Source of the DNA: Escherichia phage BEK6
Strand: one strand, 5' to 3'
Length of the DNA: 46,736 bases
Sequence record: MN158208.1
How positions within the stretch are numbered: the stretch's first letter is position 1; each line of letters begins with the position of its first letter. The notes beneath the pieces are model-generated. The model did not search any database. It was not told the origin of the DNA and saw only the letters and a program-made list of their open reading frames with translations. Below, piece by piece: positions 3,560 through 44,219 of this stretch. Made by a program: the position numbers and the translations under genes.

Positions 3560-4244
3560 GAGCCAGGTTAACCGCAATCTAAGTATTGCGGTAACTGAGT
3601 TAATTTCAGCAATGAAGGAGTCAGCAACAAGGCTTAAAATTGATAGTGCAGATGACCTTGAGGAGGAGGATGGATACCTTGACGGGGTAATTGCGGCATT
3701 GGTAGCGTCCTTTATATCAAAAATCCCAGCCATAGGGGCGGCGATATACAGATACAATAGCTCGCAATTTCTTGTGCTTGCAATAAAGACCGGAGGAAGG
3801 TCCAATCCTAGCGTTCTGAACCTTGAGGTTAACGGCATCAATGGTGATGAGCTGTGGTATAATGATGACCTAAATCAGTGGATTTACACCACTAATAAGT
3901 CAGCGATTAAATTACTGAATAACATTAAAGATGATTTCTTGCAGACGGCTGCAACAATGCAGAATGGAGATTACGTAAATCTATCTGACAGGTACAAGGT
4001 CTACAGAAAGAGAACAGCAAACATTGCTTCCGGTATTGTTTCAAGTCTGAATTCGACACTTATGAGACGCAGGCTTGAAGATGCTGGTGTTAGCCGTTAC
4101 ATCTGGCATGGCATGCTGGACGATAGGGAGCGCCAATCGCATATAGCGAGAGAGGGCCTTAGCTTTAAACTAGGTGGTAACGATATATTTCCAGGTCAAG
4201 AATACGGTTGTCGTTGCTGGTCGGTTCCAGATTGGGAATCATAA
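3516..4244 (+). CDS. head morphogenesis protein (Mu gpF / SPP1 gp7-like)
   Basis: C-terminal signature DDRERQSHIAREG...GQEYGCRCW typical of Mu F-like minor head proteins; GTG start with GAGGTGA RBS overlapping the portal 3' end (ATG 3612 is an alternative). Confidence 0.65.
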   Translation: MKPVATSWKYPQTIESQVNRNLSIAVTELISAMKESATRLKIDSADDLEEEDGYLDGVIAALVASFISKIPAIGAAIYRYNSSQFLVLAIKTGGRSNPSVLNLEVNGINGDELWYNDDLNQWIYTTNKSAIKLLNNIKDDFLQTAATMQNGDYVNLSDRYKVYRKRTANIASGIVSSLNSTLMRRRLEDAGVSRYIWHGMLDDRERQSHIAREGLSFKLGGNDIFPGQEYGCRCWSVPDWES

Positions 4245-10357: not shown

Positions 10358-10375
10358 ATAGCACTTTTTGATAAA
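10358..10375 (+). promoter_or_regulatory. gene-boundary palindrome copy (ATAGCACTTTTTGATAAA) with -10-like TATAGT 22 bp downstream
   Basis: TTGATA ends 10373, TATAGT 10396-10401, CATCGAAACGAAA 10407-10419, ATG 10435. Confidence 0.5.
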
Positions 10376-36941: not shown

Positions 36942-37306
36942 TAATGTGCGTAGCTTTATCTGGATGTTCGGCAACATCTGCTCTGACTGGTTTAATTGGC
37001 AGTAAGCCAGAGATTAGCGCTCAAGCTGGTGCAGAGAACAATAAGGTTGGTGTCGGGTTAACGAACAAGGTTGACTCCAGTAACTCCAGCGATGCTTCCG
37101 TTAAGGATTCTAGCGTAGGCTCTCTGGATAGCTCGAGCGGAAAAAAGACTGCTGACAACTCGATTAAGGCCTCAACAATCACTGCCGAAAAGATTGAAAT
37201 TACCAATAACGAATCATCAGCGCTTCCGTGGGTTGGAACGGGAGCTATGGGTGTGCTGGTTTTAATTCTCATGGCATTAATCTTAAGACGTAAAAAAGCC
37301 TCCTAA
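36917..37306 (+). CDS. unimolecular spanin (T1 gp11-like)
   Basis: N-terminal lipoprotein signal with LSGC lipobox plus C-terminal transmembrane helix (GAMGVLVLILMALIL) and basic tail; overlaps the endolysin 3' end. Confidence 0.65.
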   Translation: MLKRIAALVMCVALSGCSATSALTGLIGSKPEISAQAGAENNKVGVGLTNKVDSSNSSDASVKDSSVGSLDSSSGKKTADNSIKASTITAEKIEITNNESSALPWVGTGAMGVLVLILMALILRRKKAS

Positions 37307-37320
37307 TGGAGGCTATTTCT
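37292..37320. terminator. bidirectional terminator between spanin (+) and minus-strand gene
   Basis: AGCCTCC-taat-GGAGGCT with A-run upstream and T-rich downstream; spanin stop codon lies in the loop. Confidence 0.55.
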
Positions 37321-37501
37321 ATTGCTTGATCCTAACTTCAACATCAATATCAGACATTAGGGCGAACAACTGAGCTTTTCCATTTACTCGAATGGTCAGA
37401 ATGTTCTCTTTTACGTTATTCTCCATGACCAGACGGAACTTTCCAGCAAACTTAACCATCATGCCTTTTTTAACTTGGCTCATCTTCATAGTCTTATCCA
37501 T
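37319..37501 (-). CDS. hypothetical protein
   Basis: 60-aa ORF downstream (minus strand) of a palindrome/TATAGT/CATCGAAAAC module; bidirectional terminator 37292-37320. Confidence 0.4.
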   Translation of the reverse strand: MDKTMKMSQVKKGMMVKFAGKFRLVMENNVKENILTIRVNGKAQLFALMSDIDVEVRIKQ

Positions 37502-37558
37502 TTTAAAATCCTCTTTGTTTTCGATGAAGTAACTATACTATTTTTGTTTTTTCTTTTA

Positions 37559-37579
37559 TTTAACAATTCGTGCTATTAG
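37559..37579 (-). promoter_or_regulatory. palindrome copy (TAATAGCACGAATTGTTAAA on minus strand)
   Basis: Overlaps stop of micro-ORF 37576-37653; minus-strand TATAGT about 22-23 bp downstream, CATCGAAAAC leader before ATG 37501. Confidence 0.45.
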
Positions 37580-37653
37580 TACACGCCAAGATAAAGAGCT
37601 ACGTTATCAATGATTGCAACAGCAGTCAGCATACCAGCGAAGAACTTAACCAT
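37576..37653 (-). CDS. hypothetical hydrophobic micro-protein
   Basis: 25-codon ORF (MVKFFAGMLTAVAIIDNVALYLGVY) preceded by its own palindrome/-10-like/CCATCGAAACGATAGAC leader; below the ORF-track cutoff. Confidence 0.3.
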   Translation of the reverse strand: MVKFFAGMLTAVAIIDNVALYLGVY

Positions 37654-37716
37654 TTTATTTTCCTTTCATGTCTATCGTTTCGATGGATTAAATATAACAA
37701 TTAACCCACAAGATGT

Positions 37717-37736
37717 TTTAACAAAAAGTGCTATTT
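37717..37736 (-). promoter_or_regulatory. palindrome copy (AAATAGCACTTTTTGTTAAA on minus strand)
   Basis: Overlaps stop of gene 37735-38037; TATATT and CCATCGAAACGATAGAC leader before the micro-ORF. Confidence 0.45.
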
Positions 37737-38037
37737 ACTTGGATTCACTTCTCGCTATGTATTCGCGTATTGTTTTCGCCGTTTCGATTGCCGACCCGAA
37801 GTCACCGTGAACATGACGGCTGTCTCGGCAATCCTGGTAGAATTTTCTTGCCACATTTGAAAACATAGCTCCAGTTACTCTAGCATCACCAAGTTTTGTT
37901 TCTATCTCGTAACTAATGCCGTCCCGAAACTCATTACCACTCATAAACATTTTTGCTATTTCAGCGGTTTCGAAAAGGTCTGCAAGTTTTGATAAATTTT
38001 CATGGTCATCTTTGGTAAAGAGGTTAATGTTAATCAT
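37735..38037 (-). CDS. hypothetical protein
   Basis: 100-aa ORF preceded by a palindrome module containing terminator hairpin AGCCCATTATGGGCT. Confidence 0.4.
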   Translation of the reverse strand: MININLFTKDDHENLSKLADLFETAEIAKMFMSGNEFRDGISYEIETKLGDARVTGAMFSNVARKFYQDCRDSRHVHGDFGSAIETAKTIREYIARSESK

Positions 38038-38099
38038 CTTATTTTCCTTTGTTAATCTCGTTTCGATGAATTAATAATAACAAAAGCCCATAATGGGCT

Positions 38100-38119
38100 T
38101 TTAACAAAAAGTGCTATTT
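38100..38119 (-). promoter_or_regulatory. palindrome copy (AAATAGCACTTTTTGTTAAA on minus strand)
   Basis: Overlaps stop of gene 38118-38453; followed by terminator hairpin AGCCCATTATGGGCT and CATCGAAACGAG leader. Confidence 0.45.
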
Positions 38120-38453
38120 AAGAAAAAAGATCGTCATCCGTCATGTTGCATATGTTCATCATATCCTTAATATATTTACTTTCATAACCGTTAAGTGCCT
38201 CGAAGCTGAAATTAAATGGCCTCCTCAGGCTACCCTTGCTAACAAACTTACCGCACTTACCATCAATGTATCCAGCACTCAACATCTTTGCGCAGAACTC
38301 CTTTGAAGCAGCGCTGCAAAACTCTCTATGCGATAACCCTGCCGCCTTGCTAAATCTCTTAGAATCCTTATGTTGGTAGATGAATCGCGCCAAATGCTGG
38401 CGCGTGAAAAAGCTATAAGATTCGCAAAAACGATACATATCCAAAATGAACAC
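38118..38453 (-). CDS. hypothetical protein
   Basis: 111-aa ORF immediately downstream of the 527-aa gene (GTG start in track; internal ATG 38438 possible). Confidence 0.4.
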   Translation of the reverse strand: MFILDMYRFCESYSFFTRQHLARFIYQHKDSKRFSKAAGLSHREFCSAASKEFCAKMLSAGYIDGKCGKFVSKGSLRRPFNFSFEALNGYESKYIKDMMNICNMTDDDLFS

Positions 38454-38456
38454 TTA

Positions 38457-40040
38457 TCACCCCAGCAGTCGTGGATTAATGTAAACTTTATCACCAATCA
38501 GGCACGTGTAGTTTTTCTCATCAAGCATTGGCAGCAAGTGGTCTTTAATCTTCGTCATTACTCCCGCTTGAGCCTCGAACGGCTTAACCTTGCGAGCCGC
38601 TTCATATAGCGAACGAATACCTACTACTCCTTTCCCGTTTTTGCCTTGCTTAATCAGGATATCAATCAGCTTATTCATCTCTGCATTGTCGCCAGCGTGA
38701 CCCGCGGCGTTAGCGGATGACAGATAAGTTTTGCTCAACTCCTGGAACATAATTACAGCTTCCTGCATTGTATCAAGCTCAATTTCTCTCGACTTCTGAG
38801 GGCTACCGCCATTTGGGTTGAACCAGTTACGCACAGTGTGAAGGACAGCCGCAATCCTTATTGCCTGCTTATCAAACTTACCAAGCGCGCCGCGCAACAT
38901 TGTGTGTGAATACTTGCCGCCGTCCGCAAGGTGAGGTTCCATTTCCTGACGCGCACGGTTGAGATACTTCATTGCTGAGTTACTAACCGTTAGTTTTACA
39001 TCCTGCTCATTCATGATTTCATGAACAAGACGGAAGTAATCAGCCTTCAACCCTGCATCAATTGGTTCATAAGTCGATTCGCCATTTTCATCAACGAATA
39101 CACGCTCGCCCAGGAATGACTTTTCACGTACAAGCAGGAAACGCTCAGATACACCGATACCACGCGCGCCAGCGTTCATGATAGCGTTGATTGTCTCATC
39201 CTGCGCAATTACAGAGATGCAACCCATAGCGACGAAGCTCATGTTGTTTTCAGCGTTAGCACGAGCGATAGATACGTTGCCAGCATCCCATGCCTTCAGT
39301 ACCAGTTCGCTGTTCGTTTTCTTTGATCCGTCACCATAGGTCATGCCAAGTAGTGAGTTTACACTCGTTGCCTCATCCGAGATTACTGCAAAGTTACCCT
39401 GACGATTGTTTATTCGCGCAAGACCTTCCGGTGTGGTATCTGAAACCGGGAAAACGATATCGCATAGTTTCTCGAGTTTTTCCTCCAACTCCTCTTTCTC
39501 CTCGAAAAGAGAAGCCATCTCTGACGGGGATTTTTCCTGCTTCATCTCTTTGGATAACGCAGATAGTTTAGCCATAATCTTTTTGCGCTCACGCTTTCGC
39601 ACTTCATTCAGTCGAGCAGTTTCAGCAATCATCGGAGCAATTGAAAGTGAGTTGATTGCTGATTTACCAGTCGATGGTGGCTGGCTTGTTACAACATAAA
39701 GCGAAGTCGGTTGCTGCGTTCCGTGATACTCAACAGTAAAACGGCCTAGCATCGCAGCGGAAATACACCCAAGGAAGTGCATGTAAGCTGAAGACTCGGG
39801 GAACTGAACTGAGCGAGCAATATTAGCTGACAGTTTACCAACAACATCAATGTCATTGCCGAGTGAGATCACGGGATACTTGTCATTAGCCGCATCAATC
39901 TCCACCGGTGCTTTCCAGAATGATTGAGACTGGCGATAGCCATTGGCATTAATAGCGACGCGCAGGGGTGGGAGGTTGTCTGCGGCAGCAATTGCCATAA
40001 CCTGTTCAACAGATAGTTTATCTTCGTTGAAATCAAACAT
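38457..40040 (-). CDS. P-loop NTPase-like protein (Walker A/B-like motifs), function unknown
   Basis: 527 aa; Walker A-like QPPSTGKS and Walker B-like FAVISDEAT in the central region; N- and C-terminal segments shared with the 175-aa ORF at 42714-43241. Confidence 0.5.
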   Translation of the reverse strand: MFDFNEDKLSVEQVMAIAAADNLPPLRVAINANGYRQSQSFWKAPVEIDAANDKYPVISLGNDIDVVGKLSANIARSVQFPESSAYMHFLGCISAAMLGRFTVEYHGTQQPTSLYVVTSQPPSTGKSAINSLSIAPMIAETARLNEVRKRERKKIMAKLSALSKEMKQEKSPSEMASLFEEKEELEEKLEKLCDIVFPVSDTTPEGLARINNRQGNFAVISDEATSVNSLLGMTYGDGSKKTNSELVLKAWDAGNVSIARANAENNMSFVAMGCISVIAQDETINAIMNAGARGIGVSERFLLVREKSFLGERVFVDENGESTYEPIDAGLKADYFRLVHEIMNEQDVKLTVSNSAMKYLNRARQEMEPHLADGGKYSHTMLRGALGKFDKQAIRIAAVLHTVRNWFNPNGGSPQKSREIELDTMQEAVIMFQELSKTYLSSANAAGHAGDNAEMNKLIDILIKQGKNGKGVVGIRSLYEAARKVKPFEAQAGVMTKIKDHLLPMLDEKNYTCLIGDKVYINPRLLG

Positions 40041-40097
40041 TACTTCTCTCCGTATTGTTTCTGAGCGGCCATTATATCAACGACCGCTTATAATTCA

Positions 40098-40117
40098 TTA
40101 TCAATTTGTGCTATTAG
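40098..40117 (-). promoter_or_regulatory. palindrome copy (CTAATAGCACAAATTGATAA on minus strand) upstream of the 527-aa gene
   Basis: Minus-strand TATAAT (forward 40071-40076) exactly 22 bp after TTGATA; overlaps the 3' end of micro-ORF 40114-40230. Confidence 0.45.
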
Positions 40118-40230
40118 TTGTTCTTAATCCACTTTAGACACATCCACAATCCAGCTCCATAGAATGCAATCTTAATAACTTCAACTAAGACAAGGATAAT
40201 AAGGTATCCACCACCAAGTAAATCAATCAT
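40114..40230 (-). CDS. hypothetical hydrophobic micro-protein
   Basis: 38-aa ORF (MIDLLGGGYLIILVLVEVIKIAFYGAGLWMCLKWIKNN) with ATGA overlap to the upstream gene; predicted single TM helix. Confidence 0.3.
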   Translation of the reverse strand: MIDLLGGGYLIILVLVEVIKIAFYGAGLWMCLKWIKNN

Positions 40231-40466
40231 TTTTTAATCTCCATTTCCACAACTTCATAACTTATGTAATTATTTATCATTCCAATAAGTGATTTTGGGT
40301 ATGTTTTCATATGCTTCTTGGCTGAATCTTCATCAAGATGCGCTGATATGTTGTGAAAATTGTATTCATAATCCATGCCCATTAGTATGTATATCTTATC
40401 GTGCGCATTAATGAAGTTATTTGATTTTAATCCCCCAATAGACCAGCCTTTTCCTTTTCTAATCAT
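40227..40466 (-). CDS. hypothetical protein
   Basis: 79-aa ORF starting at ATG 40466 (ATGA overlap with upstream stop); track ORF extends to 40499. Confidence 0.4.
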   Translation of the reverse strand: MIRKGKGWSIGGLKSNNFINAHDKIYILMGMDYEYNFHNISAHLDEDSAKKHMKTYPKSLIGMINNYISYEVVEMEIKK

Positions 40467-40878: not shown

Positions 40879-40898
40879 TTTAGCAATTAGTGCTATTT
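40879..40898 (-). promoter_or_regulatory. gene-boundary palindrome copy (AAATAGCACTAATTGCTAAA on minus strand)
   Basis: Encodes the C-terminus/stop of ORF 40880-41041; minus-strand TATATT (forward 40853-40858) 22 bp downstream; CTCATCGAAACGAAAC leader. Confidence 0.5.
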
Positions 40899-44053: not shown

Positions 44054-44071
44054 ATAGCACGAATTGCTAAA
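44052..44071 (+). promoter_or_regulatory. gene-boundary palindrome copy AAATAGCACGAATTGCTAAA
   Basis: Abuts the kinase stop; hairpin CCCGCtcctGCGGG plus T-run, then TATAGT at 44092-44097 (22-bp spacing). Confidence 0.5.
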
Positions 44072-44126: not shown

Positions 44127-44219
44127 ATGAAGCAATATCCATCAAGCAATCACCATAACGGTCACGTCATGCAGTTCTATCGCCACAACCTGAAGACTAA
44201 GGGAGTATTTGGAAAATGA
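44127..44219 (+). CDS. hypothetical micro-protein
   Basis: 30-aa His-rich ORF ([30 protein letters not shown]) between the palindrome module and the next gene, ATGA overlap downstream; speculative. Confidence 0.25.

Follow-up and report, generated by a model that had tools for sequence, protein, structure and literature searches.

Two very short hydrophobic reading frames and the ATAGCAC repeat cassettes of Escherichia phage BEK6

Introduction

Can open reading frames (ORFs) of 25 and 38 codons in a phage genome be genes in their own right, and what would their products do? The question is raised by two hydrophobic frames in a 46,736-nucleotide (nt) stretch of Escherichia phage BEK6 (sequence record MN158208.1; the whole stretch is called the window here), namely ORF1 (37576–37653, MVKFFAGMLTAVAIIDNVALYLGVY) and ORF2 (40114–40230, MIDLLGGGYLIILVLVEVIKIAFYGAGLWMCLKWIKNN), which encode peptides of 25 and 38 amino acids (aa), respectively. 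An earlier note, made from the letters of the window, had proposed both as unannotated micro-proteins with a single hydrophobic helix and with their own expression signals. Both frames are present where it placed them, with exactly the translations it gave, and both are encoded on the minus strand, which it did not mention. Small proteins of phages and bacteria are a well-recognised class. The window belongs to a T1-like coliphage of the family Drexlerviridae, subfamily Braunvirinae, with approximately 82–96% identity to Escherichia coli siphoviruses of about 44–46 kb (Veterinaerplatzvirus, Rtp, SU57 and OzMSK/Msk), and the gene order near both ORFs is T1-like. The explanation that we consider likely has two parts, with ORF2 as an accessory gene and ORF1 as a lineage-restricted frame lying between two repeat cassettes.

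Conservation and operon context of ORF2

ORF2 is very probably a real, expressed gene. Its peptide is identical to GenBank entry QGH76902.1, a "hypothetical protein" of Escherichia phage BEK6, and occurs on 45 contigs. Phage SU57 carries an orthologue annotated as a 38-aa coding sequence (CDS), SU57_00073 (QLF85009.1, about 87% identical), for which the equivalent ribosome-binding site is annotated as well, and in OzMSK the orthologue CPTvBecoSOzMSK_068 is an annotated CDS of 52 aa, extended by readthrough where the stop codon TAA has become CAA. The Rtp annotation of 2006 omits the frame. All three annotated proteins represent the same family at the same position with no substantive difference, so the family is already annotated in GenBank as hypothetical proteins, just as its expression cassette (see below) is already published. 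ORF2 had seemed unannotated because the ORF track of the window drops frames under 60 aa; for ORF1, which is annotated nowhere, the description was right.

Homologues were searched for with the 52-aa OzMSK form and with alignments as queries. The same frame was found in T145P1, SU57, OzMSK, Rtp and A110b (tblastn and DNA alignment) and on five metagenome contigs, always without an internal stop, giving 11 intact DNA alleles. At the protein level, database searches yielded 23 clusters, 22 of them intact and 19 of exactly 38 aa, and profile E-values against the 22 ranged from 1e-12 to 1e-21, with similarity over the full length. From IMG/VR, Rtp alone was recovered. The clusters form three allele classes (window type, A110b type and Rtp type), and pairwise dN/dS among close alleles is 0.09–0.27. 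Seven of the ten degenerate invariant residues differ in their synonymous codon across the three classes (L10, for example, is CTT or TTA), which shows that it is the protein that is constrained, rather than the DNA of the promoter element next to it.

The most divergent alleles are informative in this respect. Over the first 24 codons, Rtp and A110b share just 42–46% nucleotide identity with the window, compared with 94–99% in the flanks (70 nt upstream and about 75 nt downstream), and this divergent half has accumulated neither an indel nor a stop, so that the length of 38 codons is kept. Residues L10, E17, K/R20, Y24, A26, G27, W29, M30, C31, K33, W34, I35, N37 and N38 are retained throughout. 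The divergent patch is sharply bounded, covering window positions 40159–40227 (codons 2–24 of ORF2), a shape that points, on the alignments, either to recombinational exchange of alleles or to diversifying selection.

Synteny was checked on six metagenome-derived phage contigs and is constant: ORF2 overlaps the stop codon of the preceding gene by 4–8 nt even when that gene differs, and the gene for a DUF3987 (T1 gp09-like) ATPase follows. On contig L016 the 79-aa gene that precedes ORF2 in the window is missing and ORF2 is coupled directly to a gp07-like phrog_2684 protein; the sole exception is contig L012, in which an extra 82-aa gene stands between ORF2 and the ATPase gene. Loss of the terminal TAA has lengthened the product to 39 aa in L016, as it has to 52 aa in OzMSK.

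In the window, an ATAGCAC cassette at 40896 is followed after 80 nt by a T1 gp07-like gene (phrog_2684, 117 aa, 40816–40463, minus strand), then, through an ATGA overlap, by an rtp68-like gene of 79 aa (40466–40227, minus strand), whose product matches no PHROG or Pfam family, and through a second ATGA by ORF2. The coupling reported for ORF2 in the earlier note is thus correct, its ATG overlapping the TGA of the 79-aa gene. A Shine-Dalgarno (SD) sequence, GGAG (40239–40242), lies 8 nt before this ATG, within the 3′ end of the 79-aa gene. ORF2 therefore has an SD and translational coupling and lacks a promoter or cassette of its own, and "own expression signals" is an apt description for ORF1 but not for ORF2. 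Downstream, the stop of ORF2 (TAA-TAG) is contained in the ATAGCAC repeat ATAGCACAAATTGATAATGAA (40094–40114, minus strand) that opens the cassette of the ATPase gene (38457–40040, minus strand; 527 aa, labelled "helicase"). In the arrangement we propose, ORF2 would be an accessory gene and the third and last cistron of a translationally coupled operon (gp07-like 117 aa, 79 aa, 38 aa) running from the cassette at 40896 to that of the ATPase gene.

Several observations weigh against a maintained gene. Among the close alleles the excess of third-position changes is not significant (8/8/14, p = 0.30), and one lineage, P0023, represented by two assemblies, is frameshifted at codon 22 by a 1-nt insertion. 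Many relatives, including 12210I, CEB_EC3a, BEK3 and T1, have no ORF2, which shows that it is dispensable; in T1 the slot is held by an HNH endonuclease gene. Frequent stops or frameshifts in relatives were found for neither ORF, and P0023 is the one frameshifted ORF2 lineage among the 23 clusters. On its two metagenome contigs (L021, 1201–1308, and L022, 665–772) the insertion changes AAGATTGCA to AAGATTTGCA, and the ATAGCAC repeat next to it has a 1-nt insertion as well, which changes TAATAGCAC to TAATAAGCAC; the pair represents either a decaying locus in one lineage or a shared assembly error.

ATAGCAC repeat cassettes

Both frames are bounded by copies of ATAGCAC, which occurs 20 times in the window against 5.5 expected and is always co-oriented with the genes (for example at 10358, 15546, 33194, 37570, 37728, 38111, 40108, 40890 and 44054). 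The copies share a common architecture: ATAGCAC-N3-TTG(C/T/A)TAAA, a spacer, a TATAGT-like −10 hexamer, usually a leader of the CATCGAAAC type, an SD and a start codon. The spacer between repeat and hexamer measures 22 nt at 15 of 19 sites, the hexamer is TGn-extended at seven, and start codons lie 72–84 nt from the repeat. Twelve of the 20 copies contain a perfect palindromic core, TAGCA-N5-TGCTA, and its position, centred about 40 nt upstream of the presumed transcription start, suggests a site for a dimeric DNA-binding protein. In most cases the preceding gene has its stop codon inside the repeat or abutting it (TAA-ATAGCAC or TAA-TAG-CAC), as at 37576–37578, 37735–37737, 38118–38120 and 40114–40116; with stop codons built into it, the repeat serves as joint punctuation of gene end and gene start.

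Direct ATAGCAC repeats have been published for phage TLS, and also for T1 and Rtp, with the consensus aaATAGCACnnnTTGnTAAAA and, in TLS, a distance of about 76 nt to the start codon (German, Kropinski and colleagues 2024, PMC11447400). The same paper left their role undecided between a stoperator, an enhancer site and an UP-like element (PMC11447400). The repeat that leads ORF1 and the repeats that end both ORFs are this published element, to which we add, as observations on sequence, the fixed 22-nt spacer to a TATAGT-like −10, the CATCGAAAC leader and the palindromic core. From these features we infer that the cassettes act as promoters. A standard sigma-70 scan speaks against this, as it does not call the cassettes and its site count is at chance level, which is why we treat promoter activity as an inference.

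The cassette of ORF1 (37648–37738) has blastn matches of about 76% identity over about 85 nt in the unrelated large Klebsiella phages Kpn35c1 (172 kb) and vB_KpnM_W8-4 (100 kb) and in other Drexlerviridae, and it precedes different genes there. This distribution hints that the promoter cassette may move between phage lineages.

ORF1 between two tandem cassettes

ORF1 would be a lineage-restricted frame of 25 codons that fills the gap between two tandem promoter cassettes, inheriting the repeat, extended −10, leader, SD and ATG from the first and its stop from the second. The first cassette (37654–37734, minus strand) is complete: the repeat lies at 37714–37734, the extended −10 (TGT-TATATT) at 37691–37699, the leader CATCGAAAC at 37677–37685 and the SD (AGGA) at 37661–37664, 7 nt before an ATG that stands 81 nt from the repeat start, and the spacer is 22 nt. 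A −10 and the leader had been recognised in the earlier note. The palindrome that it placed upstream of ORF1 was not recovered; no inverted repeat of 6 bp or more is present there in the window, where the hairpin is degenerate, and it is intact in the 12210I copy. The second cassette belongs to the next gene downstream, of 60 aa (phrog_8121, 37319–37501, minus strand), and its repeat (37556–37576, minus strand) supplies the double stop TAA-TAG.

In carrying all elements, the cassette of ORF1 resembles about 16 others that precede accepted genes. ORF1 thus sits where these cassettes carry a gene, and a 30-aa homologue of Stp (see below) follows a cassette of the same kind, so cassette-driven micro-genes are real in this phage. 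Given such a full start signal, transcription of ORF1 and its translation to yield a short hydrophobic peptide are probable.

Whether that peptide is of use to the phage is a separate matter, and we think it somewhat less likely than not that ORF1 is a selected, functional gene. It is intact in the 12210I group (43 near-identical records), with the changes I15M and L20I and a stop changed from TAA to TGA, and on the 1.5-kb metagenome contig OERD01001707, with V24M and the stop TGA. Against 12210I, ORF1 is more conserved than its flanks (3 differences in 78 nt versus 25 in 158, p = 0.009).

The evidence on the other side is considerable. Three alleles exist in all, about 96–97% identical, and their differences (three nonsynonymous, all conservative, and no synonymous) agree with neutrality and have no power to show selection. 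Compared with the closer contig (L008), ORF1 is no more conserved than its flanks (p = 0.5). Beyond these alleles the frame is absent from the other relatives examined, from phage records and from scans of viral and metagenome contigs, where pattern searches returned a 12210I-type contig only and a single contig, respectively. The best 19-residue Kyte-Doolittle mean is 1.79, the hydrophobic run being broken mid-helix by D16-N17. ORF1 is also absent from a 15-billion-protein collection, a negative that is uninformative for a frame of 78 nt lying under the usual limits of gene callers. Gene callers usually have length limits above 78 nt.

These points suit an explanation with nearly even prospects, in which ORF1 is an unselected by-product of cassette shuffling, an open spacer between tandem cassettes that is perhaps translated into a functionless peptide. 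A chance 24-codon frame would be open with a probability of about 0.27–0.35, the distribution is extremely narrow, all three changes between alleles alter the protein, the same cassette sits before unrelated genes in other phages, and the region is an indel hotspot (in 12210I a 100-aa gene together with one cassette is absent and the 60-aa gene is reduced by a deletion). Set against this, the hydrophobicity is atypical for an open chance frame: it is reached by about 2% of open genomic 72-nt windows and by 0.5–5% under composition nulls, and the chance that a frame is both open and as hydrophobic as ORF1 is about 0.001–0.015. By grand average of hydropathy (GRAVY) ORF1 is second among 368 small ORFs, although D16-N17 lower its rank by best 19-mer to about 27th. 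The conservation relative to the 12210I flanks and the retention of the frame and a stop in three of three alleles likewise argue against a mere by-product.

Nor was a longer parent gene found from which ORF1 might be left over. A partial, degenerate duplication of the 60-aa gene, with which it shares MVKF.AG..NV, was considered and rejected, since the similarity is not significant (score p about 0.12) and the nucleotide identity extends over 11 nt only. In our estimate the odds are roughly even between a functional micro-gene, young or orphan, and a neutral product of shuffled cassettes; that the spacer of two promoter cassettes gave rise to ORF1 as a young gene would be a more speculative variant. 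The earlier idea of two micro-protein genes is well supported for ORF2, by frame, length, synteny and constraint, and is tentative for ORF1, where placement and hydrophobicity speak for it and the small number of near-identical alleles, with nonsynonymous changes only, speaks against it.

Properties and possible mode of action of the ORF2 peptide

AlphaFold2, run on an alignment of 13 sequences, predicts ORF2 as one continuous helix spanning residues 2–37, with a mean predicted local distance difference test (pLDDT) score of 84. As a criterion for a transmembrane segment we used at least about 19 residues above a Kyte-Doolittle mean of about 1.6 and predicted to be helical. The best 19-residue mean of the window allele is 2.25, with a hydrophobic moment of 0.19–0.31, and ORF2 is the sole small ORF in the window that combines an ATG and an SD with a strongly hydrophobic 19-mer. 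The single hydrophobic helix of the earlier note is therefore well founded for ORF2 and less so for ORF1, with its interrupted run.

The balance of this evidence leans towards insertion of ORF2 in the membrane. The helix would lie in the inner membrane with the N-terminus out and the C-terminus in, an orientation predicted by the positive-inside rule from the acidic N-terminus (MID) and the basic C-terminal KWIKNN tail. An invariant Glu17, presumably embedded in the membrane, would pair with Lys/Arg20 and, together with a putative invariant juxtamembrane block (Y-x-AG-x-WMC-x-KWI), would form the functional core. The most plausible mode of action is intramembrane helix-helix contact, with ORF2 itself or with a host inner-membrane protein as the presumed partner; specificity would come from the variable N-terminal half, and the task of anchoring and orienting the helix would fall to the conserved C-terminal block.

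Two results weaken this picture. In the Rtp and A110b alleles the best 19-mer reaches only 1.26 and 1.55, below the threshold of about 1.6, so that transmembrane character is not uniform across the family, and the A110b allele is more amphipathic, with a hydrophobic moment of 0.50. Moreover, no allele matches a Pfam, PHROG or NCBIfam family, which leaves function to be judged from composition alone. We also considered that the conserved residues might form an interaction stripe along one face and rejected this, as their clustering on a helix face is not significant (P = 0.31–0.48), a further point against this reading. In the literature no study of either peptide was found, and the SU57 paper does not mention its 38-aa protein.

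The amphipathic alleles, for which a mode of action at the membrane surface or by pore formation is conceivable, invite another explanation, in which ORF2 would perturb the membrane and dissipate its potential instead of binding a specific partner, with a possible role in host shut-off or superinfection exclusion. TisB, a type I toxin, and peptides of the delta-lysin or phenol-soluble modulin (PSM) type act as models here. Additional polar residues (D3, H6, D13, E17 and K/R20) are present in the A110b-type (class II) and Rtp alleles, the charged pair E17 and K/R20 in mid-helix is invariant or nearly so, the moment of A110b is high at moderate hydrophobicity, and the helix is single and long. 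The window-type allele, however, is plainly hydrophobic and has a low moment, and no allele matches the type I toxin families Hok, Ldr, Ibs, TisB or ShoB in NCBIfam or Pfam at E-values up to 10 and 1. Antisense promoter-like sites are at chance level (8 versus 8.3 expected), and there is no Rfam match. We regard a membrane-perturbing peptide as unlikely.

Less probable still is that ORF2 stays out of the membrane as a small, hydrophobic helical subunit, packed against the product of a neighbouring gene (gp07-like protein, 79-aa protein or DUF3987 ATPase). Translational coupling often goes with stoichiometric complexes; in ORF2 the coupling by overlap with the upstream gene is strictly conserved, the position before the ATPase gene is constant, and the Rtp allele is weakly hydrophobic. 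Against this, ORF2 is kept in L016 without the 79-aa gene, L012 has an extra gene before the ATPase gene, and ORF2 is missing from many phages that have the same ATPase and gp07-like genes. The unbroken, very hydrophobic core of the window-type allele is also typical of membrane helices.

Another reading, which we think similarly improbable, would place ORF2 in an arms race as a module that confers specificity. Its variable half would recognise a membrane target that itself diversifies, and the peptide would act as a minimal anti-defence or superinfection-exclusion factor. This would account for three N-terminal, presumably membrane-embedded halves that differ in more than half of their nucleotides between flanks of 94–99% identity and beside a fixed C-terminal block. 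If true, the target might be, for example, a membrane-bound host defence or the entry machinery of a competitor phage.

The earlier note had raised, as speculation, an effect of such peptides on host membrane proteins or on the timing of lysis. For the latter, one or both would act in the manner of a holin or antiholin. Both are indeed small and hydrophobic, and about 270 nt separate ORF1 from the end of the lysis cassette, which encodes a holin, an endolysin of the signal-anchor-release (SAR) type and a unimolecular spanin (u-spanin) on the plus strand and is closed off by a bidirectional terminator (37297–37314) that separates it from the convergent minus-strand arm of small genes. Both ORFs, however, are on the opposite strand, in convergent units beyond this terminator; ORF2 is 2.8 kb distant, among genes of replication or early type; ORF1 has no charged C-terminal tail; and no holin, toxin or other family is matched by either of them, the true holin of the relatives being a match to PF27028. 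A lysis-timing role is accordingly very improbable.

That both frames are chance ORFs whose conservation reflects regulatory DNA only can practically be dismissed, for although both end in conserved repeat elements, T-rich sequence readily gives hydrophobic chance frames and the evidence for ORF1 is weak, ORF2 shows synonymous variation, a length kept through saturated divergence and 22 intact clusters, and its interior is less conserved in DNA than the sequence on either side, where a DNA-level element would give the reverse pattern.

Comparison with other small proteins

Very short CDSs are already recognised in this phage family, as annotations of T1 and TLS show. T1 has two hydrophobic 36-aa CDSs, ST73 (MNFNIIAFWSAVWFFCVGHVVVGIVIMLLLCAGAFE) and ST67, at 1992–2102 and 4047–4157 of its record (L009), and TLS has Gp05, of 27 codons; like ORF1 and ORF2 they lie in small-gene arms, and they share no sequence similarity with either.

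Single-helix proteins of 30–50 aa, among them AcrZ, MgrB, MgtS and PmrR, regulate larger membrane proteins of the E. coli inner membrane by binding to them inside the bilayer, and the 37-aa single-gene lysis protein of the single-stranded RNA (ssRNA) phage M inhibits MurJ. The mode of action proposed for ORF2 would resemble theirs by analogy only, there being no sequence relationship.

The window contains a third frame below 60 aa, at 44127–44219 on the plus strand (30 aa), which starts 73 nt after an ATAGCAC repeat (44054–44060) and is ATGA-coupled to the next gene. Over residues 7–30 its product is about 83% identical to T-even Stp (PP01 stp), a characterised phage micro-peptide of 26 aa that bears the annotation "activator of host PrrC lysyl-tRNA endonuclease". 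It matches 630 phage records, mostly Tequatrovirus, and the T1-like phage ZL19 encodes a "hypothetical protein" of 97% identity. This Stp homologue uses a cassette of the ORF1 type; Stp itself is a hydrophilic peptide with no sequence relationship to ORF1 or ORF2.

Of the real genes of this phage, a 60-aa annotation cutoff thus conceals at least two (ORF2 and the Stp homologue), and in T1-like phages the published ATAGCAC cassettes can be relied on to indicate the starts of very short genes. With its compact and conserved sequence, a presumably membrane-embedded invariant Glu and a localised variable half, the ORF2 family lends itself to study as a candidate for an interaction between phage and host at the membrane. 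As a protein with no phenotype, ORF2 is one of thousands of uncharacterised small phage proteins, and its significance is modest.

Neighbouring genes and RNA features

No terminator was seen between ORF1 and the 60-aa gene, which would be co-transcribed with ORF1 from the cassette upstream of the latter. An Rfam scan of the region gave no credible RNA, the top match being ylbH within the ATPase gene, at 19 bits against a threshold of 50.

The 100-aa gene (phrog_12926) present in the window together with one cassette (37735–38117) is missing from 12210I, apparently through exchange between repeated cassettes. In the same phage the 60-aa gene has been cut to an annotated remnant of 30 aa by an in-frame deletion (L002, 1440–1532). 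The homologue of the 60-aa gene in the Klebsiella phage Roth93 (L020, 376–686) is labelled "anti-RM protein stp1" (RM, restriction-modification), and the next CDS downstream encodes a Stp-like peptide of 35 aa, MSKKNPYSTSNYHNEHVMRWHWQKLKERYLARQGK; the label may belong to this neighbouring gene instead.

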